Below, in pieces: positions 15,976-40,086 of a stretch of DNA of 64,000 bases (positions are counted from its first letter, which is position 1; the number at the start of each line of letters is the position of its first letter). The stretch covers positions 448,001 through 512,000 of the forward strand of contig CAVWUU010000001.1 of NCBI GenBank assembly GCA_963758295.1. Reading direction: 5' to 3'. The DNA comes from Candidatus Eremiobacteria bacterium. GTDB lineage: Bacteria > Vulcanimicrobiota > Vulcanimicrobiia > Vulcanimicrobiales > Vulcanimicrobiaceae. The notes under the pieces were generated by a model, which was not told where the DNA came from, did no database searches, and saw only the letters and a program-made list of their open reading frames with translations. The translations under genes were made by a program, and so were the position numbers.

Positions 15976-16096
15976 CTAACGCGTCGTCTTCCAGGTAACG
16001 GGTATCCGAAACTCCCATCTACTACTCGGCGCAAGAGCAGGCTCCATCGCGACAGCCGACTAGTAACACTGCCAGGTTTTGAAGCTGCAGCTGAGA

Positions 16097-17409: not shown

Positions 17410-18321
17410 TCATGACGAAACAGACGTGATCCGCGTGCCGCGGTATATTCTCGGCCGCACCCCTTGCGGACCGCGACACGTCAATTGCGCCGGGGATCCG
17501 GCCGTGCTTGAAACCGTAACGTCGAACGTGCCACGCGCAGTCGCGACTCTTACCTGCAAGCGCTCTTCGTCGACCTTCGTCACCGACGTCGCGGTGAGTG
17601 CGTCGCGTGCCGTGATCCCGAGCTGTTGATGTGCGTAGACGATTGCCGCTTGCGCCGCCGGCGTCAGCCCGATGCGCCCCCGCAAAATGTCCGGCAGAAC
17701 TTGGCCTGTCTCGGCGCGTTCCACGAACTGCGCTGCGATTTCCGCGCTCACGCGCCCGTACAGCTCTCCCGTCGGCAAAACCAAGACGTTCGCGGCGAAA
17801 CGGTCGCCGCCCAAATGCGTGGTTTCCCACACGCGACGGGGGCGTAGGTGTTGCAGTGCTTGCGCAACGGGCCGCCCGCGCAACGCGCAGCACGCATCGT
17901 GACGCCCGTGCGCGCAAACCAAGTATAACGGTTGCGTATCGATCGCAATGGGTGCGCGATGCGGCCCTGCGCCTTCCAGTTCGTCGGCGAGCTGCGCTAA
18001 ATCATCGAAGCGCCACCACGCAATCGCTTGCGCACCCGCCCGCGTGTCGGCAATCCCCACGTCGTAGCCTCCAGGGGGCGGCCCCACGTGATGTTTGCCG
18101 TGGCGGCGAATCGCTTGGAGACGCATGCCGGCGCGCGCAGCTGAGACGTCGATGCGATGCGCAACGTCAGGATCGGCACGGCTCTCGAGCAAGCCGCGTG
18201 GCCCCCATGCACCCGGTTGGTGCACCAGCAGTACGCGCGCTTGCGGCGGCGCGGTGCCAAGCATCGAATCGCCGCGTTCATCTGCTGCCGCCGCGCACCG
18301 AAATGCTGGAACACGCGTCAT
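17410..18321 (-). CDS. Sucrase/ferredoxin-like (Apd1/Aim32-type thioredoxin-fold Fe-S) protein
   Basis: LVCAHGRHDACCALRG and WETTHLGGDRFAANVLVLPTGELYGR motifs; ATGA overlap with the upstream gene. Confidence 0.85.
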   Translation of the reverse strand: MTRVPAFRCAAAADERGDSMLGTAPPQARVLLVHQPGAWGPRGLLESRADPDVAHRIDVSAARAGMRLQAIRRHGKHHVGPPPGGYDVGIADTRAGAQAIAWWRFDDLAQLADELEGAGPHRAPIAIDTQPLYLVCAHGRHDACCALRGRPVAQALQHLRPRRVWETTHLGGDRFAANVLVLPTGELYGRVSAEIAAQFVERAETGQVLPDILRGRIGLTPAAQAAIVYAHQQLGITARDALTATSVTKVDEERLQVRVATARGTFDVTVSSTAGSPAQLTCRGPQGVRPRIYRGTRITSVSS

Positions 18322-19526: not shown

Positions 19527-19753
19527 CTACCGCCACCGGCGCCTGCGTCGGCACCTCCGTCTGCGCCGCCGTCGGCATCCTCATCCGCGCCGCCGTCGGC
19601 TCCGCCGTCTTGCATGCCCGGATTACCCGAAGCGCCGCCATCGGCCGGCCCTTCAGCGCCGCCGTCCGCGCCGCCGTCATGCATGCCCGGCGTACCGGAA
19701 GCTCCGCCGTCGGCCGTGCCTTCGCGACCCGTTCTGTCGTCATCTTCAAACAT
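19523..19753 (-). CDS. Acidic DGGA-repeat peptide (76 aa), candidate precursor/substrate
   Basis: GGAG RBS upstream of ATG; eight DGGA motifs; internal duplication ADGGASG(T/N)PGM(H/Q)DGGADGGA. Confidence 0.75.
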   Translation of the reverse strand: MFEDDDRTGREGTADGGASGTPGMHDGGADGGAEGPADGGASGNPGMQDGGADGGADEDADGGADGGADAGAGGGS

Positions 19754-20143
19754 CGTTCGGCTCCATCAAAGCGTGGGTAACCGCAAAAGCGCGGTCACAC
19801 GGCGTTTGCCCAGGCCCGCAAACGGTAAAACAGCCGCGGCCCGTTCGTTCGCTCGGGCACGATTACCACGCACCTCATTGACGCCTCTTCATGTAGCAAT
19901 GAAATCATTGCGCTCTCCTTATGGACTTACCGCGCGCTGACCCCGTCGTCATCGTGTTCGGGGTGTTTTTATGTTCAAGGTACTTCTTGGACCATGGCGA
20001 CAGACGGAGGAAAATCGGCGGGACGATTTCATTTGCCAAAATAGCCTGCGCTACTTACTTCGCTACCGAAAGCAACTCACGCATGCGCGCGCCCGTGGAT
20101 GCTGTGGTCGCCGTCAAATACGCGAAGGGCGACTGTAAGATTG

Positions 20144-20215
20144 AGGCGACGGGCAGATTCGAACTACCGCATAGGGCCTTTGCAGGGCCCCGCCTTACCG
20201 CTTGGCTACGTCGCC
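20144..20215 (-). tRNA. tRNA-Cys (GCA)
   Basis: Minus strand reads GGCGACG TA GCCAAGCGGTAAGGC G GGGCC CTGCAAA GGCCC TATGC GGTAG TTCGAAT CTGCC CGTCGCC T: full cloverleaf, GCA anticodon, U73 discriminator; followed by CAA rather than CCA. Confidence 0.93.
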
Positions 20216-20440
20216 GCCGTAGACGTTATACGAGCCGCGTTGTATTGGATCATGCTTTTGCAATTGTTGCATGTGAGCTCTCTAGGGCGTTCGCTAGCGC
20301 CCACCCCTGGGGTACGACGATACCGTGGAACCAACGGCTCATACACGTGCAGCGCAGCTCAATATACCAAGTCGCCGCGCACTAGGATATCGCTCGCTCG
20401 CGATTTGCCATCCACAAACCGCAAACGCTGCTTAGATAGT

Positions 20441-20456
20441 GTAATGTTAACATTAC
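20441..20456. promoter_or_regulatory. Perfect 16-bp palindrome, candidate repressor operator
   Basis: GTAATGTTAACATTAC is its own reverse complement and lies ~40 bp upstream of the hydrolase start. Confidence 0.5.
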
Positions 20457-20494
20457 CGTATTGGGACTCGGCTGAATGTGTTCGAGGTTAGGCA

Positions 20495-22123
20495 ATGACC
20501 AATCCGCGCCTTTTTGAGAGGCGGCACTTGTGGCGATACGTTCTCATGCTCGCGTTTTTCTTTTTCACCCACGCTCGTGCAGGGCATCATGCCGCGAGTC
20601 GCTCATGCCGCCGAAGACGCTGCAACCATTCCGCGCTTCGAGCCGGCGTCGTGTCCGAAACTGCAAGGCGTAGAATGGCTCGTCCGCGCAGACTGCGGCT
20701 ATCTCATCGTGCCCGAGGATCGTAGCCGCCCGAACGGTCGTACCATCCGGCTCCTAGTCGCAAAACATCGTGCACAATCATCGAAAAAGCGGCCCGATCC
20801 GATCCTATACCTGGAAGGCGGCCCCGGGGACATTGCCCCGCTTGAGATCAACTCGATCATCGCCGCCGGACTTCATTCGCGACCGGGACATTTGGGTGGT
20901 GAGTCAGCGCGGCACCTGGCTTTCGCAGCCCGCGCTCACATGTGCGGAGACGAACAATTTCGCAAGAGCGCTCCTTGGCCTCCGTTTCTATTCTGCGGCA
21001 ACGAAGCGCGCACATTTGGCTGCGACGGAAGCCTGCCACGGCAAGCTCATTGCCACCGGAGCCAATCTGAGTGCATACAATTCGACTGAGAGCGTTGCGG
21101 ATCTCGCGGATCTTCGCAAAGTCCTGCGCATTGCTGAGTGGAACGTTTATGCGAACTCGTACGGCACGTATGTGGCTCAGACGCTTATGCGCGATCACCC
21201 CGATGGTATCCGGAGCGTTGTCCTCGATTCGGTCGTACCGACAACGTATACCATCCCTGCAAACTGGTGGAACGCCCGCTACGCCTTCGACAACATCTTT
21301 CAGGCGTGCGCAGCGCAACCGGCTTGCAATGCGGCGCACCCCGATCTGAAGCAAACCTTTACGCGACTCGTTAAGAAGCTTGAGGCCGAGCCGCTGACGA
21401 CAACAGTCAGCTGACCCTATCACCGGCAAAGACGTCAGCGTGGTGATCGACGGCGGTGCGCTGATCGACTGGCTGCGTAATCAGACATATAGCGTGCCAA
21501 TGCTTCGCGCCGCGCCGGATCGGATCGCCGGCCTCGCCGACGGTCGCCGCCAATCCATCGAGGTGATCGCCGAGGATCGGGCCGGCCGGGCGCCACCATA
21601 TCGACCGGGTGTCCGGTTCTCGGTGACGGCCTCGCTTTCGGCGTCACCTGCCGAGAAGATTATCCCTTCGCGACCACGGAAGAACTTGCGGCGGCTGGCC
21701 GAGAAGCGTTTCCGGACTTTCCCGTTTCAGTGCAGCGCGAGGCTGTCGGCGGCTGGGCGTATGCTAACGAAGACTGCCGCGAAGTCTGGAAACCGGCCGC
21801 CGCTCCGAAGACCATGCACGAGCCTGTTGCGAGCAGCATTCCAACGCTCCTCATTTCCGGCACCTTCGATACGTTGACGTCTCTCGCCGGGGCGCGGGCC
21901 GCAGCGACTCGCCTGTCCCACGCGACAATCATCAGCATCCCGGGTGTAGGGCATACTGACTTCCGCATCGTCTCCTTGCGCCCAAGCAGTCATCGTCTCG
22001 TTCTATGCCGCTCCCAATCGCGTCGACACATCGTGCGTCCGTGGGTTGAAACCGCAACGTTTCACCTCAACCGCATCACCACAGGTACGACCGTCTGCGA
22101 CGAGCCCTACGGATGCATCTTAG
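20495..22123 (+). CDS. Secreted alpha/beta hydrolase, TAP-like tripeptidyl aminopeptidase family (frameshifted)
   Basis: CGYLIVPEDRSRPNGRTIRL, PILYLEGGPG, SQRGT, NSYGT, VVLDS and PTLLISGTFD..H are spread over 4-5 frames. Confidence 0.8.
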
Positions 22124-22250
22124 CTGTTCGCAATCGCCGCTCGAAATGCTGAAGATTGACCTTAGCCGTTTCGGCACCTCAGGTCTTTTAACAATGGAAC
22201 GCCTCGCGGAAATTCGAGACGTTCTATTTGCTGGTGTACCGCGAGGACGA

Positions 22251-22661
22251 TTAGAATTTCTTCCTCTCACGTTCAGGAGACCAATCCTCTACCAATTGTC
22301 GAACTTCGATGGCGCCAAAATGCGCGCTCGGAATTAGCGCAGCGTATTCGAGCGCCTGATCATGACTGGCGCAGTTGAACACATAAAATCCAGCCAGCAC
22401 CTCTTGCTTCGCAAACGGTCCTTCTGAAAGAACTCGCTTGCCATCGCGGATTCGCAGTGTCCTTGCCGTATTTGATTCGTAGAACCGGGCGCGATTGTGA
22501 ATTTGCGTGGACAGCGTCTCGTTCAGCTGCTGATATGCATTAGCAGCCGTTTGCAACTCCTCTGGACTTGCCGCTACATCCGTCGGGATATAAATCAAAC
22601 AAATATATTTCAAGGTAGTACCTTCTAGCTCACAAAAGAATCGAGTAGTCTCGGCTACCAA
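22251..22661 (-). CDS. YciI/DGPF-family protein
   Basis: RIRDGKRVLSEGPFAKQEVLAGFY..A..G.IEVR motif; true start probably TTG at LKYICLIY. Confidence 0.8.
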   Translation of the reverse strand: MVAETTRFFCELEGTTLKYICLIYIPTDVAASPEELQTAANAYQQLNETLSTQIHNRARFYESNTARTLRIRDGKRVLSEGPFAKQEVLAGFYVFNCASHDQALEYAALIPSAHFGAIEVRQLVEDWSPERERKKF

Positions 22662-23449
22662 TCGACGACCAAACCGCCGGTAAGATTGACCGTTGATGCA
22701 GTCATCGATGTCGCGCGGTCGCTCGCTGCAAAGGCTGCCGCATCGGCTACTTCTTGCACGGTGGTCGAACGTTTCGTGTGCGTGAGGCTCTCGATGAACC
22801 CCTGAAACTGTTGCTGTGGAATACCAATCGCTTTGGCATGCAAGCCGAAGACGGTTTCGATTGTCTTCGTTTCCGGCAGCCCCGTCGAGCGAATGGTCAC
22901 CGCGCGGATCCCATATTGGGCAAGCTCGCCTGAAAAATTACGATTCATCGCTTCCATCGAGGCCCATGACGGCGCCATGCCGCCAACGAGGCGAGCGCCG
23001 AGACGTGAGACCTCCGGGACGTGCGCGAGAATTACACCGCTCTTCTGTTGCATCATGCGCTGCGCCGCTGCCCGAGCCGTAATGAAGTATGACTTAGAGT
23101 ACGCGACGATCGGCTTCATGAAATCTTCGACGGCAATCTCTAGTAAGGGTACACCCTGAACGCCCTGCTGCGGAATGCTGATCGAGCAGAACGAGATGTC
23201 GATGCGTCCGGCCTTCGTCAACACATCGTCGAGGTACGCGTTAGCTGCATTTTCGTCGAGCACGTCGACCATTGATGCTTCCGCTGCTCCGCCTGTGCGG
23301 ACGATCTCGTCGGCAAGAGCTTGGACGGCTGTGTGCGTACGTCCGGCAAGAAAGAGGCGCGCACCTTCGCGCGCAAAGGTTTTTGCGACTACGCTACCGA
23401 CGCCGCCCGCCGCGCCATAGATCACCGCAATTTTGTTTTGGAGTAACAT
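22655..23449 (-). CDS. SDR family oxidoreductase (atypical)
   Basis: IYGAAGGVG Rossmann motif, GRIDI, C-terminal TASTVNLTGG. Confidence 0.9.
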   Translation of the reverse strand: MLLQNKIAVIYGAAGGVGSVVAKTFAREGARLFLAGRTHTAVQALADEIVRTGGAAEASMVDVLDENAANAYLDDVLTKAGRIDISFCSISIPQQGVQGVPLLEIAVEDFMKPIVAYSKSYFITARAAAQRMMQQKSGVILAHVPEVSRLGARLVGGMAPSWASMEAMNRNFSGELAQYGIRAVTIRSTGLPETKTIETVFGLHAKAIGIPQQQFQGFIESLTHTKRSTTVQEVADAAAFAASDRATSMTASTVNLTGGLVVDW

Positions 23450-23523
23450 GCCTCAACCGACGGCAGCCTAGCCGAGAAAGATTCTGAATCTTTTTCGGCC
23501 GCGCCATCGTCAAAGAGGATAAG

Positions 23524-24420
23524 ATGCTATATACGGACCTCGAGGATCGCATAGAACCTCTGCGGCCGCGGTTGCACAGGTATTGCTCGCGTATGACCGG
23601 CTCGGTGTTCGATGGCGAAGACGTCGTGCAGGAGGCCCTGATGCAGGCATTTCGCGCTTTGCGCTCCGAAACGGAAATCGTCGATCTCGAGCGTTGGATG
23701 TTCAAGATCGCCCACAACGCCGCCATCGATTTCTTGCGGAAACGAGCGCGCGAATCGCCGCTAGCCGAGTACGATCCGGAAACGCTCGCCTTTACTGATA
23801 ATGAAAACGATCACATCGAGACGGTCCCGGTGAGCATGCGAATGCTGATGCGCCTTCCTGCAAACCAGCGCGCCGCCGTGCTGTTGAAAGATGTGCTCGG
23901 ATACCGCTTGCAAGACGTGACGTCAATTCTCGAAATGACGCTTCCAGCAGTAAAGACGGCGCTGCATCGCGGTCGTTCGCAATTGCGGGACCTTGCGCAA
24001 AGAGAGCTAAAACCGACGTGGGCACCGAAGCTGTCGCCGGCTCAGCGAGCTCTGTTCGAACGCTACGTTGACCTTTTCAACGCACATGACTTCGATGCAA
24101 TTCGGGAAACGCTCGCCGAAGAAGTTCGCTTGGATCTCGTCGGGGTCGAAAGGCGTGAAGGCAAGCTTAACGTCGGGCACTACTTTGAAAACTATAGCAA
24201 GCGTTCGTATTGGCGCCTGCGGGTGGGCACGCTCGAAGGTCGTTATGTGGTCATGGTGCATAGCGCTGAGGTCGGGTCACCGCCGCTCTACTTCGTGGAG
24301 CTCCAATGGGAGGGCGACAAAGTCCGCTCGATCCGCGATTTCGCGCATGCGCGCTACGCGCTCGCGAATACAGAAATTGAGGAATCCTTTTCGAAGGCGC
24401 CATCGTCCGTTGATGCATGA
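23524..24420 (+). CDS. ECF sigma-70 factor with SnoaL-like C-terminal extension
   Basis: LHRYCSRMTGSVFDGEDVVQE, WMFKIAHN and AVKTALHRGR; C-terminal RYVDLFNAHDFDAI..LAEEVRL. Confidence 0.9.
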   Translation: MLYTDLEDRIEPLRPRLHRYCSRMTGSVFDGEDVVQEALMQAFRALRSETEIVDLERWMFKIAHNAAIDFLRKRARESPLAEYDPETLAFTDNENDHIETVPVSMRMLMRLPANQRAAVLLKDVLGYRLQDVTSILEMTLPAVKTALHRGRSQLRDLAQRELKPTWAPKLSPAQRALFERYVDLFNAHDFDAIRETLAEEVRLDLVGVERREGKLNVGHYFENYSKRSYWRLRVGTLEGRYVVMVHSAEVGSPPLYFVELQWEGDKVRSIRDFAHARYALANTEIEESFSKAPSSVDA

Positions 24421-24716
24421 AGGTAACAACTGTACGCTATAAAATCGCGCCTGATCGCGTGCAAGAAAACGTCCGTTTCGTCCGTGCGGTTTTCTCGCAA
24501 CTCCACGAGACGTCGCCGAGTGGACTGCGATACGCGTGCATGAGGGCAGGTAACGGCTCATTCATGCATATCGTTTGCACCGATGACGACGCCGCCGACG
24601 AGTCGCTGACGTCACTTCAATCGTTTCACGACTTTCGCGTGGGCTTTGAGGATCGCGCCCTCGAGCCACCGACCTTCACGGAGCTTGAGGTCGTCGGAAA
24701 CTACGGGCTCTTCTGA
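24417..24716 (+). CDS. ABM-like dimeric alpha/beta barrel hypothetical protein
   Basis: ATGA-coupled to the sigma gene; VRYK..VQEN..VRAVF..L..P.GLRY..FMHI..EVVGNY. Confidence 0.7.
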   Translation: MKVTTVRYKIAPDRVQENVRFVRAVFSQLHETSPSGLRYACMRAGNGSFMHIVCTDDDAADESLTSLQSFHDFRVGFEDRALEPPTFTELEVVGNYGLF

Positions 24717-24729
24717 GCTGGGCCACACG

Positions 24730-24915
24730 ATCCTCACCGCTGTCACGCCTCGTTCACCGGAATACTCGATCGGTCGCGCGCACTTCTTGATGCAAAACGC
24801 ACTCATCGCCGCGCAAACCGTTGCCGCCGAAGGGGCCACGTACATGGCGCTTGGCAACGCGCGTATGCCGATGATCGACGGGCGCGATATTCGCGAAGCC
24901 GCAGCGCGCCATCGG
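24730..24915 (+). pseudogene. NmrA-like SDR fragment
   Basis: FLMQN...EGATYMALGNARMPMIDGRDIREAAA resembles the NmrA-family 'FMQN..G..ID.RDIA' region; no start or N-terminus. Confidence 0.5.
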
Positions 24916-24965
24916 ATTGTACACTAACCTAAATGTTCTGACGCAAAGCGCGGATCGGGAATCAG

Positions 24966-25196
24966 ATGAAAACTATGACTTGTAGTGATCTTGGCGGAAT
25001 TTGTGACGTAAAGTTGTCCGCTCGCACGTGGGACGAAATGGTAACGACCATGACAGAACACGTGATCGGAAATCATCCTGGCGTCGTTCAGCATATGGAA
25101 AAGATGCACAACGAGGATCCCGGGAGATGGTCTAGAGAGACGAAACCCAAGTGGGACGCCATAATGCCATCGGCGATAGACCGCCGGATCCCTTGA
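24966..25196 (+). CDS. DUF1059-like small metal-binding protein
   Basis: MKTMTCSDLGGICD..TWDEMV..MTEHV..H pattern. Confidence 0.7.
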   Translation: MKTMTCSDLGGICDVKLSARTWDEMVTTMTEHVIGNHPGVVQHMEKMHNEDPGRWSRETKPKWDAIMPSAIDRRIP

Positions 25197-25277
25197 GAAC
25201 TGCGTGAGCCGGTTCGCCACGGATGGCGGAGCCGCAGATGAAGAATCGTACCGTCTCGTTTTTAAGCATCTGCATGC

Positions 25278-26675
25278 TCACGGCTTTTTCGGCTGCGTGA
25301 TCTGCGCGTTAGCGTAATGACTCCCGATCGCGCCGTCGCGAATGAAGTCGGCCATCATCTCGAAATACTCCGGCGCAAAGCGCGTCGAGAGACGCTCACC
25401 TTTTGCATTCAGCTCGTATAACGTCATTCCATGTTCCGCGCCGGGATAAACCGCGAGCGTGTATGCCCTTCCGCCGGCAATCAAGGACTTTATGCGCTTT
25501 GCCGTTACAGCGCTTGGAGCGTCTAAATCGTCGGCGCCGAGTACCCAAAGCTGCGGCGTCGTAGACTTCCTTAAAACCGGCATGGGTTGGTACTCGAACG
25601 GAGTTGTGTTCACACCGTACTCCTTGGCCGCCTCAACGATCTGCTTCTCGTTCAGAGGTAAGACGATGAAGAGAAAGTCGCCATGTACATCCTTGTACCA
25701 GCGCGCTGACCTATACTTCCGGCGCAAGCTATCGAACTTATTGTAGCCTTGTCTCCCGCCGGTCTCGACGACGTATTCGCCGGCGCGCGCAAGTTCTAGC
25801 GCCTTAGCGGTATCTGCAGCCGAGCGGTGGTGTAAATACATGTCGAGGGCGACGCTTTCCTGATCTTCTTCTAATACCGTAACGGCAAGTCCAAAGCTCA
25901 CAATCGCGAAATCGACATGAGCATGACTCGCCGCGATCGGTACGACCCACCCGCCTTCACTACCGCCTTGATAGCCGATGCGCCCAAGGCGCGAACCGGT
26001 GAGGCGTTTGGCTTCGTTCAGCGCGGCGACGGCATCCTCGGCAAGAACTTCGAAATTTTGCGTGTAGGTGCCGCCGGATGCGCCGGTTCCGCGCTTGTCG
26101 TACACGAACGCGCCAATACCCTTCGCGGGGAACATTCGTTGTAACGCGTAGAAGTCAAGAGCCGAATCGTGCTCTGAACCATGCACCAAGACAACGACCG
26201 GTATTTTTCCGTGACCTTTCGGTAGAATCAGCCGGCCGGCGAGCTTCGTGCCGTTGCTAAAGAAGGTGGTATTGGTCACATCGAATGCGATGCGCGTACC
26301 GTGCTCCTCTCCAAAAACGATCTTACCTTTGTTGCAATTGGAAAACGAAACGGTCTTGCCGTCCGGGCGACCGGTCCAGCCATAGGTACTCGTCCACGTA
26401 CCGTCCTTCTGCGGATGAAGCTGCCCTGTCTCGCCGGTGAACATACGCCACCGTAGCGTGCCCGCATCAGACGGCGCGATATCGACGGTTTTACCGTCGC
26501 TCAGCCCATAGGAGCCGATGTGACAATCTTTCATCGTATCGGTCGCGGCCCCGGCGGTCAGCGGCGGCGCCACGCAGATCAGGGACGAGATAATCGCGGA
26601 CAGCGCCGCAGCAATCAGTTTGCATTTCACGCTTACCTTACGCCCGTGTTGGCATGTGTGTTTCACTCTCGTCAC
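25278..26675 (-). CDS. Secreted alpha/beta hydrolase (S9/S15-like)
   Basis: VLVHGS, YDKRGTG, GGSEGG nucleophile elbow, GADD and GAEHG; signal-like N-terminus. Confidence 0.85.
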   Translation of the reverse strand: MTRVKHTCQHGRKVSVKCKLIAAALSAIISSLICVAPPLTAGAATDTMKDCHIGSYGLSDGKTVDIAPSDAGTLRWRMFTGETGQLHPQKDGTWTSTYGWTGRPDGKTVSFSNCNKGKIVFGEEHGTRIAFDVTNTTFFSNGTKLAGRLILPKGHGKIPVVVLVHGSEHDSALDFYALQRMFPAKGIGAFVYDKRGTGASGGTYTQNFEVLAEDAVAALNEAKRLTGSRLGRIGYQGGSEGGWVVPIAASHAHVDFAIVSFGLAVTVLEEDQESVALDMYLHHRSAADTAKALELARAGEYVVETGGRQGYNKFDSLRRKYRSARWYKDVHGDFLFIVLPLNEKQIVEAAKEYGVNTTPFEYQPMPVLRKSTTPQLWVLGADDLDAPSAVTAKRIKSLIAGGRAYTLAVYPGAEHGMTLYELNAKGERLSTRFAPEYFEMMADFIRDGAIGSHYANAQITQPKKP

Positions 26676-26729: not shown

Positions 26730-26990
26730 TATGGCCGAGACGTTTGAGTTCCAAGCGACGAAGTGAGACGTTCTGCAAGACCGTTGGTAAGGACGACGGT
26801 TGCGCCGTCTTCGTCCGTGCGGAACACGGTTACCCCGAGTGTTCCAGAGTTGCAATCGTAGACGGGGCCGGGTGGCCGAAAACATTGTGGCGGCCGACCG
26901 AGATGATTGCGTATCGCGGGTGCACCGCGGCGATGAACTCCGGAGAAGAGCTGTATGCCGATCCGTGATGGCCAACTTTCAGAACATCGG
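26730..26990 (-). pseudogene. comEC: comEC 3'-end copy (DVLKVGHHGS to stop)
   Basis: Translates DVLKVGHHGSAYSSSPEFIAAVHPRYAIISVGRHNVFGHPAPSTIATLEH / VFRTDEDGATVVLTNGLAERLTSSLGTQTSRP*, closely similar to 32319-32580. Confidence 0.9.
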
Positions 26991-27177
26991 GGCTCTGGGT
27001 TGTTAATTAATTTGCGCGCTTGTTAAGGCGCGGCTTTTTGCGGTTTGCGTGCTAAATTCGGGGACTTGCGTGTTTTACTCGCGCAGCGGCTTCATGCGGC
27101 CAGCCAACCTCGAGTGGTATGCGTGTGCAATGGGTCGCAGCCAAGGAGCCCCGCTTTCTCGCGCTGCACCTGGTTGC

Positions 27178-27850
27178 ATGACAGCAAAAGAGGATCGAAA
27201 TCTGCGAGACAGGCTGGTCTTTGCGCGAGTCGGGTGGTGCAGGCTCTACAATGAAACTGCGGGCGACGAGCCGCTGCAAGGCGGCTCCCACAATAACGAC
27301 GAGGTCGGATCTGAGTTCGCCAACTTTTCAGTCGTTAAGGGTCGCGTGTACGGCTACGTGCGGCTTGGCTACGATGGCCAAGTGGTCCGCGTCATGGGTT
27401 CGCCGGACGCTGAAGTGGACGACGTGCCCATTGCGCTTTTCGCGACCGTATACGTTTGGCCGGGCTCGGCGAAGGACGCCATTCTTCTTCCCGTTCGCGA
27501 GCGCCGGTTGACCATTCCGAAGGGTAAGGGTGGAACCGGCCAGGCAAACGTAACGTATTCGCGCAACGCCGTCGGTCGGCTACGTAACGTTCCATGGATC
27601 AGTGAGGTACGTCGGTTCATTCAGTCGTACGACGGACCGTCGTTGGTGGGTCTAAGAAATGTTCAGTCCAACGAAGAGATAGTGGCGGACGAAGCGGAGG
27701 CGTTGCTCCGTGGTCAGAACATCATGCAGAACGCGCAGATGCGCGCAAGCATCGAGGACTACGCTATGCGGAAAGTGCGCGCGGCTCTGCGAAACGACGG
27801 ATACGAGGAAGTAGAAGACGTACACGATTGGCAATCGTTCGACTTCTGGT
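27178..27850 (+). pseudogene. Truncated putative nuclease with DUF3883/NOV-C-like start
   Basis: IEDYAMRKVRAALRNDGYEEVEDVHDWQSFDF resembles the DUF3883 N-half; the sequence switches to antisense comEC before the expected (D/E)xK motif. Confidence 0.55.
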
Positions 27851-27977
27851 GTCGCGTTCTATTCTCGCAGTCTGCCGTGCGTCGTTATACGCATAGCCGC
27901 CATAGCGTTGACCGCTATCGCAAACTCCGACACGGGAAAATCGCGCAAAACGACGGGCGCACCGCCGACGTGGTCGC
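27850..27977 (-). pseudogene. comEC: comEC fragment starting at DHVGG
   Basis: DHVGGAPVVLRDFPVSEF/DSGQRYGGYAYND matches comEC DHVGGCAPVLRALRV.EIADSGQSYGGHAYHD. Confidence 0.85.
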
Positions 27978-28100
27978 ATAAAATCTTTCAGGCACACGAC
28001 CGCGGGAGCGCATGCGCCGTATGCCACAGAATAAGGCATCATGAAGGCTGCCGACACCTAACGAACGGTCGATCGTACATTACGAGGGAGGATCTTAACC

Positions 28101-29675
28101 ATGCGTCCTGTCCGCACTATTACCGCTCTAGCTTTCATCATTGTTGCTAGTCTGTGCTGTTTAGCCGTGGCAGAAGCGTCGTGCGGGCCGGCAGATCCAA
28201 CCGGGTACTACGAGGGCACCGCCCAGAGTAAGGAGGCCGGAGCGCTGAAAGTCACTATGAACCTGCGGTGCGACGGCCGTCGTTATAACGGCAGCATAGT
28301 TACGCCGGTTGGTACGTTTGCAATCGTCGACGGCAGCTACACGAACGGAACCCTCAGCTTGCAGTTCGGCGGTGGCGCCATCAATGATCGGGGGACACTG
28401 AACCTACAGATTAACGGGGATAGCGCCATAGGGTCTTTCAAACTCGCCGCCGATTCGGGCTCTTTTGCGTTAACGCGATTGGGGGATGCTCACGTGCTAG
28501 CATCGGTGACGCCCGATCTCGATATCACAAGGCAGCAGTGGCATGAGGACCTGCGGTTCCTAATGTCAGAGCTTACGACTAAACACGTCCAACCGTTCGC
28601 GTACACGTCGCGCCAAACGCTGCTGGACGACTCGGCGGCACTCGACCGGCAATTGGGCACGCTGAACTTCGATGAGATTTATATGGGCATGGATCACATA
28701 GCCAATCTTATCGGGGATGGCCATACATACGTGGAATTCCCGCCCGATCTCGCACTTTTTCCGATGCAGCTGCAGCGCTTCAATAACGATTACCGGGTTA
28801 TCGAAGCGACCGGAGAGGGCAAGAATGTACTTGGGATGCGCGTGGTGGCAATAGACGGAGTGCGCATTCAAAAGGCGCATGATGAACTTCTTGCAGCTAT
28901 CACGCCCATCGGTGAGACGAAGATACTTCGCGACGTACGGGCGCAGAATTTTTTGACCATCGGAATGGCGCTGCATGGAATCGGCATCATTTCCGAGCGC
29001 GATCGCGCAACGTACACGATTGAGGATGATTCCGGCCGCGTAAAGCAGGTAACTTTGAACGCGCTCTCGCCCGCACAAGCGGACGCGGCTCAGTGGAAGT
29101 GGGCATGGCAAAAGCGTCCACTGTTTCACCAGCGGCGAGACGATGATTTTTGGTACACGTATCTGCCGCACGCGAAGGCAGTATACCTCAGTTTTAGGGG
29201 CTACGAGAATCTGCCGTCGCTCGCTCCACGGTTCATGGATTTCGTGAAAACGAAGCGGCCCGCCAAAGTGATAGTGGATCTCCGATTGAACAGCGGTGGC
29301 GATTATAAAGCAGGTTTGAAGTATCTAGTCGACCCCATTGCCGCACTTTACAGCATAAACCGGACGGGGCATTTGTTCGTACTCGTGGGGCCGAACACGT
29401 TTTCCGCTGCAATGTCAAACGCGGCGCAGTTCCGGACCAAAACGCACGCGCTTTTAGTTGGCCAAACCATTGGCGAGCGGCCAAACAGCAACCAAGAAGC
29501 AAATGAGGAGCGGCTGCCCAATTCGCATCTGCTGCTTCGGTACTCGACGCGGCACTACGCATTCTTGCCGGGGAAGATCAATGAGATCGTTCCCGACAAG
29601 CAAATCATTCCCGCGTGGCCGCCGTTCCGATCTGGACGTGATCCGGTTTTGGAGTGGGCGTTAGCAGCGTACTAA
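28101..29675 (+). CDS. Secreted S41-like (tail-specific) peptidase
   Basis: GGAGG RBS, signal peptide, W.EDL..L...H, DGHT, IVDLRLNSGG and TFSAAM. Confidence 0.8.
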   Translation: MRPVRTITALAFIIVASLCCLAVAEASCGPADPTGYYEGTAQSKEAGALKVTMNLRCDGRRYNGSIVTPVGTFAIVDGSYTNGTLSLQFGGGAINDRGTLNLQINGDSAIGSFKLAADSGSFALTRLGDAHVLASVTPDLDITRQQWHEDLRFLMSELTTKHVQPFAYTSRQTLLDDSAALDRQLGTLNFDEIYMGMDHIANLIGDGHTYVEFPPDLALFPMQLQRFNNDYRVIEATGEGKNVLGMRVVAIDGVRIQKAHDELLAAITPIGETKILRDVRAQNFLTIGMALHGIGIISERDRATYTIEDDSGRVKQVTLNALSPAQADAAQWKWAWQKRPLFHQRRDDDFWYTYLPHAKAVYLSFRGYENLPSLAPRFMDFVKTKRPAKVIVDLRLNSGGDYKAGLKYLVDPIAALYSINRTGHLFVLVGPNTFSAAMSNAAQFRTKTHALLVGQTIGERPNSNQEANEERLPNSHLLLRYSTRHYAFLPGKINEIVPDKQIIPAWPPFRSGRDPVLEWALAAY

Positions 29676-30347
29676 CCTCGCACGACGTTCCGTCGCTTAT
29701 GATGGATATAGCGCCGTTTTCGTCGCTGCGGAAGACTCACACGCCGAAATGTTCGATTTCAAGCGTCGAGGACGCCGGATAGCCAAACGTGTTGTGGCGG
29801 CCTACTGAGATGATCCCGTATCTTGGATGAACCGCTGAGACGAATTGGGGCGACGAACTGTATGCTGAACCGTGATGGCCGATTTTGAGAACGTCGGAGA
29901 CCTGCGTGGCTTATTGGACGACTTGCGTGCTAAATTCGCCGTTGAATTCTCCGTTTGACAAAACCGGGTCGACCTTGATCACCCACAGTAGAACATCGGC
30001 ATGCAGATCGATGCCTTCGTCCAAAAAGCGACGGTCGGCCGCGACGCCGGCATCGCCGGTGAAAAGCATCCGAAAGTGTTTGTATTCAAGGACGAATGCA
30101 ATCGAGTTATCGTTGATCGCGTTTCTTCCGTCGATGAACGGAAGCGACGGTCCGATGAACGTTAGCATCAGGCCGTCATCGGTCCGCCAGACGTCGCCCG
30201 CTCGGGGTTGAACGACGGGCACATAATTTGTTTCGGCGGTTTCGAGGCAGTCGTGGTATCCATGTCCGCCGTAGACTTGTCCGCTATCGGCAATTTCAGC
30301 TACGCGTAATCGCCGCAGCACCGGCGCGCAGCCACCGACGTGATCTC
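29676..30347 (-). pseudogene. comEC: comEC 3'-half copy (DHVGG to end), interrupted at DVL by an ~92-bp insert
   Basis: DHVGGCAPVLRRLRVAEIADSGQ...FTGDAG...HADVL | insert | DVLKIGHHGSAYSSSPQFVSAVHP...; internal stop near the end. Confidence 0.9.
29888..29999. mobile_element. Scar of an element integrated at the comEC DVL site, with a 10-bp direct repeat
   Basis: AGAACGTCGG (29888-29897) and AGAACATCGG (29990-29999) flank non-comEC DNA containing TTGCGTGCTAAATTCG, which also occurs at 27045-27060. Confidence 0.75.
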
Positions 30348-30369
30348 ATAAAATCTTCCACTCACACGC

Positions 30370-30410
30370 TTGACAGCCGAGAAACCCTGTGTATACTGTG
30401 CATATAGACA
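30370..30410 (+). promoter_or_regulatory. Sigma70-type promoter with overlapping YtrA/GntR-type operator
   Basis: TTGACA-N16-TATACT; inverted repeat TGTGTATA-N7-TATAGACA; ATG at 30410 gives a near-leaderless transcript. Confidence 0.7.
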
Positions 30411-30800
30411 TGCACAGTGGTTTCGTCATCTCCCGGTCGGATGGCCGGCCGATGTACCTCCAAATCATTGAGCAGATCAAGGAGCGGATCGCGGTCGGCG
30501 ACTGGCCTCGAGGGGCGGAGATTCCTTCGATTCGTCAGCTAGCGGCGTCGCTTCGCGTGAGCGTCATCACGATAAAGCGCGTCTACGAAGAGCTCGAGCG
30601 CGAGGGCGTGATCGTCACGCAACAAGGCAAACCATCGACCGTGTCCGACGACGCCAACGTCGGGCGCGTCGAACGACAACGATTTGGTCCAGCATATCGA
30701 GCAAGTCGCCCGGCTTGGAACGTTGCTTGGATTTTCCCCAAACGAGTTGGGCGCGCGAATGCGCGACGCCGCTGTACGATTGACGGAGGAAGCCCGATGA
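30410..30800 (+). CDS. GntR family regulator, YtrA subfamily (one frameshift)
   Basis: PMYLQIIEQIK..IPSIRQLAASLRVSVITIKRVYEELEREG; the alternative frame ends DLVQHIEQVARLG..LTEEAR*. Confidence 0.85.
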
Positions 30801-31696
30801 ACGACGAGTTAGCGGTTTGTTTTGAAGGCGTCGGAAAGAAGTATCCGCACTTCACACTCGACCATATCGATCTCGAACTTCCGACCGGCCACATCATGGG
30901 GTTCATCGGTGCTAATGGTGCCGGCAAGTCCACGACATTCGAATTCTCATGGGCCTCGTTCGCCAGGATCGCGGCTACGGTTCGCGTTCTTGGGCATCCG
31001 ATGCCCGCGGAGCTCGTAGCGGCAAAACGTGATATTGGCTTCGTTTCCGAGGACATGCGGCTTTACAAGGGCGCGACAATCCAATGGCACATGGACTTCG
31101 TGCGATCGATCTTTCCGAACTGGGATGCGTCCTATGCACACGCTCTACTTAAGCGGTTTGACATCACGCCGCAACAAATGGTGAAGGGTCTTTCGCACGG
31201 CCAGCGCGTAAAGGCTGCGCTTCTCCTTGCGCTTGCGCGGCGGCCCAAGCTGCTTGTGCTTGACGAGCCTACCACGGGGCTCGATCCGGTGGCCCGCCAA
31301 GAAGTATTAGGCGCGCTGATTGAGGCACTCGTGGACGAAGAACGAACGGTGCTCTTCTCGTCCCAGAATACGATCGACGTCGATCAGATTTCCGATCGCA
31401 TCACGTTCATCGATCGAGGACGCATCGTGGACTCGGGCGACAAAGAAACGTTCCTCGATCGCTGGCGACGCATCCGCGTCGCAGTTCCCGACGGTGCGAA
31501 GATTCCATCGCTTCCCGGAGTCGTCGATGTGACCACCAGTGGACGCATAACGGTGTTGACGACTAACCGCTTTGATCCAGACGTATCGGCTGCCTTCGAG
31601 AACACGGGCATCGTGGTGCATGCGATCGACACGATGACGCTTGAAGAAATTTTTCTTTCCGAAGTAAACGGCCGCCGAGAGCGGGAGGCAGCATGA
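30797..31696 (+). CDS. ABC transporter ATP-binding protein
   Basis: GANGAGKST Walker A, LSHGQ signature, LLVLDEPTTGLDP. Confidence 0.9.
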   Translation: MNDELAVCFEGVGKKYPHFTLDHIDLELPTGHIMGFIGANGAGKSTTFEFSWASFARIAATVRVLGHPMPAELVAAKRDIGFVSEDMRLYKGATIQWHMDFVRSIFPNWDASYAHALLKRFDITPQQMVKGLSHGQRVKAALLLALARRPKLLVLDEPTTGLDPVARQEVLGALIEALVDEERTVLFSSQNTIDVDQISDRITFIDRGRIVDSGDKETFLDRWRRIRVAVPDGAKIPSLPGVVDVTTSGRITVLTTNRFDPDVSAAFENTGIVVHAIDTMTLEEIFLSEVNGRREREAA

Positions 31697-32368
31697 GTTT
31701 CTCAATGGTTCAAAGGCTGGTCGCTAAGGATTGGTATCTGTTGCGCCTGCCTCTCGTCGGCTACGTTAGTGGAGGCGTCCTAGCGCGTGCTCATGTTGGC
31801 GACGGGCGGCGAAGCGATGTTCAACGTTGGGACCATTCTGATCATCACGCTCCTCATCGCTTTGGGAATGCATGTGGTGATGGCGACGGTTGTCGGTGAG
31901 CGCATGGAACATACGCTGCCGTTCGTTATGAGTCTCCCGGTTTCAATTGCGCAGTACACCCTGGCGAAGATCGTCGCGAATGGTTCACTGTTTCTGAGCG
32001 GCTGGCTGCTGCTGTCGGTTGGCGTCTCCAGCGTTATCCTACTTCGCGCCGGCGTGCCGCACGGGTTGTTCGTCTTTTCGACGATTATGCTGCTCTATAT
32101 GCTGGCGAGTTATACGGTGCTTCTCGCCGTTGCAATCATTACCGAGTCCATGGCATGGACGATCGTAACGGTAATCATCGGGAACTTGTGCCTCAACTTT
32201 CTGATGATGGGGATGTCGCAAGTGCCAAGCATCAAGGATGCTACGACGTCAGCTCACGTTACTTGGAGTGCTCAAGCAATCGAGGTCGTCGCGTGCGAGT
32301 GTTTCGCCATGCTCGTTGCTATGGCCGTAACATTTGCGTTCCAAGCAAGGAAGTCAGATTTTCTCTGA
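31693..32368 (+). CDS. ABC-2 type permease (frameshifted)
   Basis: LVAKDW start, ER..TLPFVMSLPVS..Y.LAK, several TM helices; ATGA overlap. Confidence 0.8.
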
Positions 32369-34628
32369 GCCCGTCTGTGAGAACCATGGTTGCCGCGTTC
32401 TCGTCTGTGCGATAAACCCTCGCGCCAAAATGTTCGAGGGTTTCGATAGTCGACGGCGCGGGATGACCGAACAAGTTATGCCGGCCGACGGAGATAATCG
32501 CGAACGCGGGTGAACGGCAGCGATGAATTCCGGCGACGAGCTGTAAGCAGATCCATGATGGCCAACTTTCAGCCCATCGGCGTGAAGATCGATTCCTTCG
32601 CTCCAGGAAGCGTCGCTCCGCTGCAACGCCGGCGTCCCCAGTGAACAGCATCCGGAATTTGAGATACTGCAAGATGAACGCGACGGAATTGTCGTTGATG
32701 GCGTTCTTGCCGTCGATGAACGGCAATGATGGACCGATGAACGTCAACGTCACGCCGTCGTGCGTCCGCCAGACGATCCCCGCACGCGGTTCGACGACGG
32801 GAGCATGATCCGCAGCAGCCGTGTCAAGACAATCGTGATACGCGTGGCCGCCATAGCTTTGTCCGCTATCGGCAATCTCCGCCAACGCGTAACGCGCGCA
32901 GCACCGGCGCACACCCGCCAACATGGTCGCCGTGCGGATGCGTAATGATAATTGCATCAAGCCGATGAACGCCTTCGCGAAGCAGAAAAGGGGCGACGAT
33001 GCGTTCGCCGATCTGCTCGGCTTGCGAATCGCTGCCGGAAGCGCCTCGCTCTAGACGGCCTCCTGTGTCTACGAGGATCGCGTGATGCGCCGGCGTTTCG
33101 ATTGCAATGGCATCCGCCTGACCAACATCCAGGATGGTTATTTTTAATCTGTGGTCGTCGACTCGAGGCGGCCAGAGCACGTAGGACGTCGTGATGAGCG
33201 CTAGTGCAATTGCGGCCGTCGGTGAGCCGCGTCGCCAGAACGCGGCACCGGCCAGAAGTGAAAGCTCATACGATGCTATCGCCCACGACGGCGCCGGGGT
33301 CATTGGAATCGTGGCAGCCGGCGCAGAAGAAAGAAGCTGGACCGCGGTCGTTATCCAAGCGATGAGCCAGCTATTCACGTTCGCGAATGCTTGTGCAATT
33401 GCCGGTAAGGGCGACGTTAGCAGTTGGGCACCGCCAAGCGCCATCGTGATGGGTACGCATGGCACAACCGCAATGTTTGCAAGCAGCGCGTAGGGCGTAA
33501 ATTGCAGAAAAACCGAAGCAGTTACCGGCCACGTTCCCAATTGCGTTGCAAGCGTTAGCACTACCGCTTCCTTCGCTTGCGCCGGAAGGGAGACGCGGCG
33601 TAAAGCATCATGAAGGATCGGTGACAGAGCGAATATGGCGCCGACGCAGGAGAACGACAGCCAAAAAGACGCGGACGTAACATCGAAAGGTGCAACCACT
33701 ACAATTAGCAGCACGGCAGCCGCAAGAGCGTTCCAAGATAAAAGCGGACGGCCCGCAGCACGTGCCGCAAGCGCCATCGTCGCCATCATCGCCGCGCGCA
33801 TCGCCGGTATATGCAGTCCGCTCGCCGCGGCGAAGAGCCAAACGCCCGCGATAGCAATAGTGCATGCCGCGGGCCGCGGAAACTCCGGCAAAGCCGCAGA
33901 GCGCCGCAAGTAAAGCAGCAACGAGTCCGACGTGAAGTCCGGCGGTCACTAAAACATGAACCGTTCCGGTTTCCTGAAATTCGCGGCGCAAGTCGGGCGC
34001 TAAGGAGGCCCGTTCGCCCCACAATTCGCCCGCAATAATCGCTGCGCCCGGATCGCCGAGCTGCGCCTGCAGCTGCGCGAACATTTGCGCCTTTAAGCGC
34101 GCAATAGATGCAAGCATCCCTGAACCGTCGCCCAGACGTTCGACGATCGTTGCGTTGTCGATGCGCGCCGCTAAACCGTTCTCTCGCTCGATGTCGCGTT
34201 GGCTGGGTTCGCCGGGATTGCGAGGTCCATCGAACGGTTCGAGTCTTCCACGAATGCCGACGCGCTCTCCGGCCGAGGCCGGTTGACGAACCGCACAGCG
34301 AACGACGGTGCCGTCGTCCAGTCGAAGAAGATCCTCGTGCAGCCCCTCCGGCGTCACGCTTTCCGCCAGGATGATGCCGTAGAACCGCTGCACGCGCGTT
34401 TCGGAGACGTTCGGTTCAGATTCTGTACGGATTACGCCGTAGGCGGTCGATGCTGCGAGGGCCAGTATCACGGCCACGCGAAACCGGCGTGGTTCCGAGC
34501 GTAGCAGTGCGGCGAGAAGGACAACGCCGCAGCAGAACGGTTGCGCGCTCGTCCGTGGGTAGCGGTGCTCCTAGCAGCGCACCAAGCAGCGCGGATGCGG
34601 CGAACCAGGTGAGCGAGAGCCCGGACAT
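32319..34628 (-). CDS. comEC: DNA internalization competence protein ComEC/Rec2 (frameshifted in assembly)
   Basis: RNPGE, FQETGTVHVLVTAGLHVG, SFWLSF, LDVGQADA, THPHGDHVGG, NDNS, FTGDAG and KVGHHGS. Confidence 0.92.
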
Positions 34629-34683: not shown

Positions 34684-35620
34684 GTGCGTATCATCGTCAC
34701 CGGCGGAGCCGGCTTCATCGGCTCTCACATCGTAGACGCCTACCTGGCGAGCCGGACACGAAGTGCTTGTCCTGGATTCGCTTTGGGAGCACGGCGGCGG
34801 CCGTCGCGCGAATGTTCCGGAACGCGCGTCCTTCCTTCACATGGACATCCGCGACGAAAACATCGCGCGAATCTTTTTCGAATTCCGCCCGGAAATCGTC
34901 AGCCACCACGCTGCACAGCACTCCGTTGCGATTTCGTCGCGCGATCCGAAGATTGACGCCGATGTGAACGTCATCGGGCTGTTAAACGTGCTCGACAATC
35001 GGTAAAAAACGGCGTCAAGAAAGTCGATATTCGCGTCGAGCGGCGCAACCTTTGGAACTCCGGAGCATTTCCCGATCACGGAAAACACGCCGCAGAATCC
35101 TACGTCGCCGTACGGCATCACGAAAATGGTGGCCGAACACTATCTGCGCTTTTATAAAGAAGAGAAGGGCCTCGATTTTACGGCCCTGCGATACGGCAAC
35201 GTCTACGGCCCGCGTCAGGACCCGAACGGCGAAGCCGGCGTTATTTCGATTTTTATCGGAAAGTTCTTAAAGCACGAAGGCATTCGCATCGACTGGGACG
35301 GCGAACAAACGCGCGATTACGTCTTTGTCAAAGACGTGGCGAAGGCAAATCTGTTGGCGCTCGAGGGCGGCTCCGGAAAATGCTACGTCATCGGAACGAA
35401 CCGCAAGACGAGCGTGAACGACATCTACCGTTCGCTCGTGCAGATCAGCGGTTTCGAAGCGCCGGTGACCCACGCGCCCCGTCGCGCAGGTGATGCGCGC
35501 GACGCGCAATTCGATTCGGCGCTGGCAAAAGCGGAATTGGGATGGGCGCCGCAGACCGCGCTGCTAGACGGCATGCGTGAGACCTACGACTACTTTAAGG
35601 CGTTATACGTTCCGGCATAG
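34684..35620 (+). CDS. NAD-dependent epimerase/dehydratase (UDP-glucose 4-epimerase-like; frameshifted)
   Basis: IVTGGAGFIGSH, HHAAQ, SPYGITK, LRYGNVYGPRQDPNGEAGV. Confidence 0.9.
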
Positions 35621-36880: not shown

Positions 36881-39386
<2,506 letters not shown>

Positions 39387-39461
39387 AGGGAGCATGGTAA
39401 TGGCGCCACGGCGTTCGCCGGCTACCTTTCCGGTCGGGGGCCGCCGCGTGATAGAGCGCGT

Positions 39462-40086
39462 ATGGTTCGCATTGCCGTCGTGGCCGCCGTCTTGCTCTTG
39501 GCCGCCTTTGCCGTGTGGCATCCCGCCGCCAAGCCAGCCGCCGCTTTCCGTCGCGAGCCCGCTGCCGGCGCGCACATCGTGCCGCCCGGAACGACGCTCC
39601 ACGCAGCGGCTGCCGGCCGCGGTCGTTTACGTGGCCGGTGCGGTGCTGCACCCGGGACTCTATCGGTTCAGCCGAGGTGCCCGTGTCGACGACGCGGTGC
39701 GGCTAGCCGGCGGCTTACGCCGCGACGCCGACCCGCTCGGCGTAAATCTGGCGGCGCATGTCGCAAGACGGCGATGAGATCGCGGTGCCGCACGCCGGAC
39801 GAGAGAGTTCGCGGTGCGAACACGCGTCGGGCCTCACGAGCGCGTCGGCCGCGCCAAAGAGCAGCCGCCGGCGCCCTCGAGCGTGGACGTGAACACGGCC
39901 AATGCGCCAACGCTTGCAACGGTCCCGGGCATAGGCGCGGCGATCGCGCAGCGCATCGTCGTGATGCGCGAGCGGATGGCGCCATTCGAATCGCTCGATC
40001 AGTTGCTCGACGTTGCCGGTATGACGCGCGCACGACTCGACCGGGCGAGCATCGTATCTTGCGATATGATAGAACGCGCAGGGTGA
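39462..40086 (+). CDS. comEA: ComEA DNA-binding competence protein (SLBB + HhH; frameshifted)
   Basis: N-terminal TM, VYVAGAVLHPGLY..RVDDAV..GG, VDVNTA..LATVPGIG..AQRIV. Confidence 0.85.

Follow-up and report, generated by a model that had tools for sequence, protein, structure and literature searches.

Integrative elements that restore the 3′ end of their target gene are known, as are tandem accretions with integrase-less derivatives such as the cis-mobilizable elements (CIMEs) of streptococci. For CIMEs and for the composite islands of the staphylococcal cassette chromosome (SCC) at rlmH, helper elements with the same att sites are known and only tens of target bases are duplicated, and phage 21 and e14 in icd are single integrase-bearing prophages bringing a substitute gene end of about 165 bp. 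In the displacement arrays of rhs and cdiA the tails encode unrelated toxin domains accompanied by immunity genes, and the orphans keep variable core lengths. Mobile elements and natural transformation are known to be in conflict with each other. Tycheposons of Prochlorococcus come with tyrosine integrases of their own, and their targets are tRNA genes (10.1101/2020.12.28.424599). Here we provide an analysis of a 64,000-nucleotide stretch, called the window, on contig 1 of the genome of an uncultured soil bacterium of the Eremiobacterota (3.03 Mb, 6 contigs, 82% complete), in which the competence gene comEC is followed by diverged extra copies of its own 3′ part, each preceded by the same short motif and set apart by unrelated genes. 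With about even confidence we suggest these units being site-specific non-autonomous cassettes which dock in comEC, are moved in trans and are later reshuffled by homologous recombination. Genomes are labelled G### (G000 being the genome of the window) and fetched loci L###.

The window contains three comEC 3′ parts, i.e. tail A, which belongs to the resident gene, and the extra tails B and C downstream (Table 1). A three-way alignment and the junction table place the start of homology at positions 32930 (resident), 30347 (tail B) and 27977 (tail C), in all three tails within HPHG|DHVGG, at base 2 of the Gly codon. Tails B and C are preceded by the same 22-nt sequence, the arm, whose pattern matches twice in the window, compared to 0.01 matches expected, and nowhere else in the 3.03-Mb genome; the resulting units are 2583 and 2370 bp long. 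This bears out what a first-pass annotation of the stretch had described, namely two diverged extra copies starting from the same base, a common non-comEC arm outside both of them, the two unit lengths and a cargo consisting of a GntR-ABC operon and an S41-like peptidase, in which Pfam detects no recombinase domain. Its description of both copies as comEC 3′ halves applies to tail B, which carries a 92-bp insert, but not fully to tail C, which is incomplete with its middle replaced by an 890-bp foreign stretch; a second hotspot in tails B and C, the internal deletion of tail C and frameshifts in comEC had escaped it. In the repeat families of the window the tails are 73-87% identical and are thus not one sequence that was collapsed or duplicated in assembly. 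The many indels of the window assembly could speak for an artefact of concatenated strain alleles of the comEC end, but we consider this extremely improbable, the tails being diverged to this degree and set apart by unique genes and arms, and the same architecture being present in independent assemblies from a genome collection and from metagenome contigs. The target gene is identified as ComEC/Rec2, as pieces in the window match PF03772 and PF00753 and the orthologue of the same-genus genome G003 scores 236.9 bits against a TIGR00361 cut-off of 190; the 5′ part of the window gene is 76.7% identical at the nucleotide level to the gene for the intact 766-aa ComEC of G003.

Related genomes contain comparable arrays. 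With the G003 tail as query, orphan tails starting at query residues 2-5 were found in at least 17 of 151 family genomes among the matches listed. We fetched the arrays of G005, which comprises about seven tails across 30 kb, G151, G155, G133, G147, G086, G092, G014 and G018, together with 10 loci of a species-representative genome collection and 13 metagenome contigs matching arm, core and GAYCAY. Scanning 25 loci with an arm scoring matrix, built by coordinates from 11 arms, resulted in 41 junctions with full flanks, 37 of them unique, and 36 of these continue into GAYCAY of a comEC tail; arms beside DHVGG codons, which the first-pass annotation had suggested looking for, do occur in relatives and metagenomes. 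Exceptions are L034:1897-1946, in which arm and core are followed by an inverted arm, and L059:2085-2108, in which the arm is followed by GACC and then by unrelated DNA. The orientation relative to the tail is identical in all 36 arm junctions, the cargo adjoining the arm is unrelated from junction to junction and the outer edge of the arm is sharp. A strict arm pattern gives 15 matches in 12 of 348 family genomes, covering 5 of 78 genera, with 0 matches for the reversed control; nine of the 15 coincide with fetched array positions and the other six were not individually inspected. The counts over 151 and 348 family genomes include genomes flagged as unpublished. Two typical arrays (L046 and L047) stem from entries titled Verrucomicrobiia and Acidiferrales; their ComEC is about 63-65% identical to that of G003, as in other Eremiobacterota, making mis-binning likely.

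In array-bearing genomes the resident comEC fused to its current tail is one open frame, as is typical of targets of elements restoring the gene end: it encodes 765 aa in G151, 798 aa in G155, 779 aa in G005 and 789 aa in G086, and an open frame or a continuous alignment is also seen in L048, L051 and L055. The window copy is frameshifted, so that the assumption of the first-pass annotation that DNA uptake is kept intact agrees with the open genes of these four genomes but cannot be claimed for the genome of the window itself. The neighbouring epimerase gene (34684-35620) has three single-base indels compared to its intact G003 orthologue, leuS (37100-39700) appears as several overlapping frames, and the side from comEC to leuS is 80.1% identical to G003 with 176 gap columns in 11.7 kb, compared to 0 gaps on the hydrolase side. 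The breaks in comEC, epimerase and leuS are either real decay or uneven assembly errors.

The arm has the consensus TTGTGTGAGTAAAGGACTTTAT (22 nt). Over the 36 junctions the mean pairwise identity is 78.8% in a 24-nt window consisting of the arm and two core bases, a value inflated somewhat by selection of the junction set with the 11-arm matrix; it is 58.1% in the next 66 coding bases (67.0%, 67.8% and 39.4% at codon positions 1, 2 and 3) and at the random level of 25-27% in the 48 bases further upstream of the arm. Despite this inflation, the identity of the arm compared to the random DNA upstream and its sharp outer edge argue for a function. In L034 exactly GCGACC separates two arms pointing towards each other, in G018 two comEC 5′ pieces end with ...GGTGACC followed by the inverted arm, and in the standard junction the arm is followed by G-M-G-A-Y-C. 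Together these junctions delimit a 6-bp core, G-N-G-A-Y-C, which starts with base 2 of the Gly codon and ends with base 1 of the second His codon. When 23 junctions (-40 to +50) were folded as a consensus, no attC-like hairpin and no structure at all resulted (energy 0.0), and neither a second inverted arm nor another motif was found at the tail-distal edge of 28 tail ends. At matrix thresholds of 11-15 bits only 3 arms in inverted orientation occur across the loci yielding the 41 forward junctions; among 25 genomes of two genera the L034 site is the one palindromic arm-core-arm site found, a further match with one mismatch being unrelated. A motif scan came by chance across spaced repeats on contig 1 of G000 (~810796-811851), with a unit starting GTCATGGTGAGC... 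and spacings of 48 nt and upward.

An empty site, i.e. the unoccupied comEC allele which the first-pass annotation had suspected, is present in G003 of the same genus: its intact and uninterrupted 766-aa ComEC is followed by 64 bp and then by the orthologue of the alpha/beta-hydrolase gene that lies behind tail C in the window (25278-26675). G004 and G005 also have full-length comEC frames. Over tail residues 117-168, tail C is nearest to the G003 tail with 86.5% amino acid identity, compared to 63.6% for tail A and 58.5% for tail B. Deriving boundaries base by base from empty and occupied species of genus g72 failed, as these are too diverged (~76% nucleotide identity). Cassette DNA has passed from lineage to lineage: over 4 kb, L048:4579-8549 agrees at 93.5% identity with L051 (8023-12029, reverse strand), whereas between the two genomes the 5′ parts of comEC reach only 73%. 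The shared block starts at the core and consists of tail, cargo, arm and next tail; it is first in L048, fused to the resident 5′ part, and second in L051, behind the arm of another cassette, a difference in rank that is compatible with proximal insertion and equally with loss of one unit. In a tree of 34 tails, in which support is modest, resolution is low and one long branch is flagged, the tails of this shared block are almost identical. In one genus the distal, displaced tails cluster with the resident tail of an empty-site genome (Shimodaira-Hasegawa-like approximate likelihood ratio test, SH-aLRT, 83-90), in keeping with native tails having been pushed outward, tails fused to resident genes of that genus being placed elsewhere, and tail A groups with tail B and a displaced G005 tail rather than with the resident tails of G003 and G001 (SH-aLRT 81-87).

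These findings led us to a model according to which a cassette would consist of a complete replacement comEC 3′ part, starting with the Asp codon of HPHG|DHVGG and ending with the stop codon, any cargo and the 22-nt arm. If a cassette circularises, its arm would lie directly against the 6-bp core G-N-G-A-Y-C and the beginning of its own tail, and the core may recombine with the same six bases of the resident comEC, joining the tail of the cassette to the resident 5′ part and thereby leaving comEC whole. The former tail would be left downstream behind the arm, and repeated rounds of this proximal entry would displace older tails farther, resulting in arrays of up to about seven tails. The enzyme is predicted to act in trans, and a 6-bp core with one long arm resembling a binding site is more in line with a tyrosine-type than with a serine recombinase. 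Arrays once formed would, in addition, be reshuffled and passed across lineages via ordinary homologous recombination between tails.

No gene for a tyrosine or serine recombinase was detected by Pfam among 323 open reading frames (ORFs) of the window, 13 genome arrays with flanks and 13 metagenome loci; a recombinase beside the same arm elsewhere, suspected in the first-pass annotation, is thus not seen in this set. The scanned ORFs include one insertion-sequence gene (DDE_Tnp_1), inside an insert of G014. Searching large ORFs of unknown function for a hidden recombinase gave nothing relevant (nine ORFs with Pfam up to an E-value of 1, eight with PADLOC). PF00239, the serine recombinase family, has no match in G000, G176 and G155, and this together with the 6-bp core leaves the first-pass annotation's hint at a serine-type enzyme unsupported; a large-serine-recombinase element was rejected for the same lack of PF00239 and for the core being 6 bp rather than a 2-bp crossover. 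Genes for rve-type transposases occur in all five genomes checked. The XerC/XerD-like gene, the only intact tyrosine recombinase gene of the own genome, lies on a contig other than that of the window, at 332-333 kb of contig 4; it reaches 309 bits compared to the XerC cut-off of 335 and passes a XerA-type model. On contig 4 of G000, 428588-428607 is a palindromic TCCATAA-N6-TTATGGA, likely the dif site in a lineage with an apparently single Xer-type recombinase; this dif candidate is unique per genome in 7 of 41 relatives, with an eighth match (G002) not being dif-like. Resemblance to an Xer/dif site was discarded as support, as the arm fits the dif candidate only in an excluded register and at chance level given the many alignments; Xer itself could still be the enzyme. 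Integrative mobile elements exploiting Xer (IMEX) were discarded as well, as arm and core are unlike dif in the required register and the target is comEC, not dif. An integron was also excluded, lacking an adjacent integrase (0 PF00589 matches in the 323 ORFs) and an attC hairpin. The integron-like accretion claimed by the first-pass annotation therefore holds as far as discrete recombinase-free units, recurrence at the same base, an empty allele and a cassette at different ranks are concerned, but not with respect to integrase and attC.

Several of our observations weigh against docking of cassettes by a recombinase acting in trans. The own genome contains a single Xer-like gene besides one frameshifted integrase, neither of them near comEC, and G176, assembled as a single 3.2-Mb contig and carrying two arms, matches PF00589 once, in an Xer-like gene, and PF00239 not at all. 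In the register required by the homology boundary the arm is unlike the best dif candidate. The comEC sequence flanking the core is unlike the arm, which is unusual for simple tyrosine recombinase sites, and the arms of G147 and G018, which belong to other genera, differ in the 12 bases next to the core; they keep a distal GTGAGT-like box. The inflated arm identity and the limited resolution of the tail tree mentioned above count on the same side. Finally, the block shared by L048 and L051 takes in the next tail, so that homologous recombination could have moved it.

This last point leads to the main rival explanation, purely RecA-dependent recombination between the ~600-bp tails following one ancient founding arm|tail junction, with cargo turning over in place and units being excised, exchanged and inserted, the latter Campbell-type or via uptake of tail-cargo-arm-tail fragments. 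It accounts for the lack of a recombinase in or near any array examined and for tails bounding the shared L048/L051 block on both sides, and the host gene itself encodes a DNA-uptake channel. It also agrees with the mosaic flanks of the array. The hydrolase segment (25192-26665) is 92.9% identical to G003 at the nucleotide level with 0 gaps and 89.7% identical to G005, compared to 80.1% to G003 on the comEC side and 75-80% for flanking genes, and judged by this pattern it looks like a separately exchanged gene-sized piece; the variable region extends about 10 kb past the tail array. The part from ~15400 to 25190, encoding among others an extracytoplasmic function (ECF) sigma factor (23524-24420) and a short-chain dehydrogenase/reductase (SDR; 22655-23449), has no counterpart at the matching place of G003, which holds about 11 kb of other DNA, and synteny with G003 resumes near 15400 at an ORF of 1868 aa (9243-14849). 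A founding junction spread by RecA alone would, however, leave the arm as a 22-nt non-coding relic, which should not be more conserved across genera than codon positions 1 and 2 next to it, and would leave unexplained its sharp outer edge against dozens of unrelated cargos and the one start base of every tail copy. Nor would homologous recombination be expected to produce inverted arm junctions around exactly 6 bp, and we regard this explanation as rather unlikely.

The cargo shows what such units carry. The first cargo of the window has matches to PmtA-like and PmtR-like NCBIfam models, both under cut-off, and a promoter-like pair TTGACA / TATACT just inside the arm, and the protein of the second cargo has no match in NCBIfam or PADLOC. 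Across the arrays we find transporters, regulators, hydrolases, a tRNA-Ile gene and, as genes of defence type, those for a TIR/CAP12 protein, for HORMA plus an AAA ATPase, for a HipA-like kinase and for Fic, and an all-versus-all BLAST of 242 ORFs of 13 arrays reveals the tails as the only recurrent protein family. The tRNA-Ile(GAT) gene (L036:3863-3938) lies about 50 nt from an arm in a cassette of only ~0.8 kb; a tRNA-arm-tail block is ~75% identical in three loci of different genomes (L036, with remnants in L034 and L048), and ARAGORN calls an intact tRNA in L036 only. The arrays are therefore old as well as active, as this unit or its remnant is common to three loci at ~75% identity. On a metagenome contig, L058:4257-8378 encodes a set resembling a cyclic-oligonucleotide-based anti-phage signalling system (CBASS), consisting of HORMA, an AAA ATPase, an RNase_T exonuclease and two ORFs of unknown function, directly upstream of an arm. 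In G018 (C4:870000-909500; L024, L025) comEC breaks off near residue 467, after the channel domain and ahead of the nuclease domain. The next 35 kb contain two partial nuclease-domain heads that end with HPHGDH and the inverted arm, and then a full nuclease-domain ORF; the cargo there comprises genes for a TIR/CAP12 protein, a HipA-like kinase, a TonB receptor and BlaR/BlaI-like proteins.

Units of this kind could also derive by decay from ordinary integrase-bearing islands or prophages with comEC as target and a replacement 3′ end, or be satellites of these, the helper being unsampled. Elements restoring target 3′ ends and integrase-less tandem accretions provide a precedent, and the genome of the window has two tyrosine-recombinase fragments elsewhere. 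The 13 genome arrays and 13 metagenome loci contain no integrase, though, G176 is without an integrase apart from Xer, and arm plus core gave 0 matches in a viral contig collection. The smallest units, a ~0.8-kb unit in L036 and a tail followed by an arm after 37 nt in L029 (16646-16706), resemble designed minimal units rather than deletion debris, and we judge an origin from decayed islands to be unlikely. A CIME or satellite assignment was likewise rejected, as no autonomous element with the same att sites was found in the 13 genome arrays, the 13 metagenome loci and the viral contigs, a sampling which is limited.

A different type of insertion is seen at a second hotspot inside the tails, at the codons HxDVL|KVGHHGS (window sites 29888-29999 in tail B and 26981-27880 in tail C), with inserts of 92 bp in tail B, 890 bp in tail C and 37.7 kb in G014. 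The tail B insert lies between 10-bp direct repeats CCGAYGTTCT (29990-29999 and 29888-29897), and it has a 16-nt motif (29923-29938) in common with the tail C foreign stretch (27045-27060). The 37.7-kb insert of G014 (L023:19415 with L037:1670) has 9-bp direct repeats and imperfect terminal inverted repeats; inverted repeats and target duplication, a feature of DDE-type transposons, are thus found at the second hotspot in G014 and in tail B of the window. Tail matches in G092 and G136, among the matches listed, end near the same residue, which suggests a break there too. By the same logic the arms might be terminal inverted repeats of non-autonomous DDE-type transposons (mobile insertion cassettes, MICs) with a duplicated 6-bp target, the tails being secondary duplications. 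The arrangement arm-6 bp-inverted arm in L034, the inverted arms behind the G018 5′ pieces, the rve-type transposases in all five genomes checked and the behaviour of the second hotspot, with the G014 insert and the 92-bp remnant in tail B, agree with this reading, which fits the second hotspot better than the first site. At the first site, only 3 inverted arms stand against 41 forward junctions, the typical unit has one arm and a seamless join to the comEC tail, and no inverted partner lies near the tail ends. Moreover, a simple insertion would break comEC and thereby make repair by DNA uptake impossible, so that we consider this reading very unlikely; a MIC or miniature inverted-repeat transposable element (MITE) at the HPHG|DH site was rejected as a candidate because of the only 3 inverted arms at threshold.

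Table 1. Features of the comEC region, given in window positions.
Feature	Position	Strand	Basis or remark
comEC, whole	34628 down to 32319	-	split over four reading frames
comEC 5′ part: DUF4131, Competence domain, metallo-beta-lactamase domain start up to HPHG	32931..34628	-	several frames; PF03772 (3e-38), PF00753
Resident 6-bp core GCGACC (Gly codon base 2 to His codon base 1), putative crossover region	32925..32930	-	homology boundary
Tail A, comEC 3′ part now fused to the 5′ part	32319..32930	-	at least 3 indels compared to tails B and C
Cargo 1: ABC-2 permease	31787-32368	+	Pfam
Cargo 1: GntR-family regulator + ABC ATPase	30389-31696	+	Pfam; one ORF as assembled
Arm 1, 22 nt	30348..30369	-	matrix score 30.6 bits; then core 30342-30347
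Tail B, displaced comEC tail	29647..30347	-	contains 92-bp insert 29898-29989 at second hotspot
Cargo 2: 524-aa protein, weak Peptidase_S41 match	28101..29675	+	PF03572 at 4.8e-06
Arm 2, 22 nt	27978..27999	-	matrix score 27.0 bits; then core 27972-27977
Tail C 5′ fragment (DHVGG...YAYND)	27881..27977	-	~95 nt comEC (27975 to ~27881)
310-aa ORF, mostly within tail C foreign stretch	27049-27981	+	no family match
Foreign stretch inside tail C, 890 bp, replacing the tail middle	26991..27880	+	ends at second hotspot
Tail C 3′ fragment, CCGATGTTCT to stop codon	26729..26990	-	262 nt; portion most like G003 tail
Alpha/beta-hydrolase (S9/S33-like) gene	25278..26675	-	directly follows comEC in empty-site G003

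Literature outside subscription journals yielded no description of comEC cassettes or of such arrays in Eremiobacterota, and the passages on comEC in PMC12479173 and PMC6008420 mention no such cassettes. As a tentative and still doubtful interpretation, we suggest the arrays might represent an unrecognised gene-capture platform of Eremiobacterota, an analogue of integrons which docks in the ComEC coding sequence, whose cassettes are marked by the 22-nt arm and a self-supplied gene end and are moved by a chromosomal enzyme unlike a cassette integrase. This enzyme could be the single Xer-type recombinase of the lineage or a new protein. As the host gene stays intact, the cassettes could spread via the transformation pathway they occupy, and the stored tails might provide a stock from which the ComEC nuclease domain is varied. 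If true, this would be a second, independent bacterial route to ordered arrays of captured genes without a mobility gene per unit, in a widespread but uncultured soil phylum. It would also bear on the conflict between mobile elements and transformation, with the units occupying a competence gene without destroying comEC. The arm of 22 nt, the 6-bp core and the codons of the comEC motif constitute a concrete, testable recombination site, which makes a search for the enzyme feasible.

Compared to the described systems, the comEC arrays lack the defining features, i.e. an adjacent integrase, attC hairpins, an own integrase or a dif-like site. Tycheposon islands share with them partial copies of the target gene scattered through the island (10.1101/2020.12.28.424599); the comEC arrays differ in being found without an integrase and in targeting the comEC coding sequence. 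Like CIMEs and the SCC islands at rlmH, they consist of att-bounded recombinase-less units which have piled up at the 3′ part of a conserved gene and presumably move in trans, but the duplicated target part is 0.6 kb and diverged, and no helper was found. With phage 21 and e14 they have in common that a diverged replacement for the displaced gene end comes with the element, keeping the target functional, whereas the comEC units form arrays of minimal cassettes. The arrays of rhs and cdiA likewise show an expressed gene followed by orphan 3′ fragments starting from a conserved motif, with accessory genes in between; the comEC tails, in contrast, are homologous throughout, have one exact start base and a conserved arm before each displaced tail. 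The resemblance to integrons lies in arrays of small recombinase-free cassettes with unrelated cargo, each ending in a conserved element resembling a recombination site, and in new units apparently entering proximally and displacing older ones distally. In contrast to integrons, the comEC arrays have no integrase beside them, their arm is a 22-nt linear motif without a conserved hairpin, their docking site lies inside a protein-coding gene and each cassette brings about 600 bp of replacement coding sequence.

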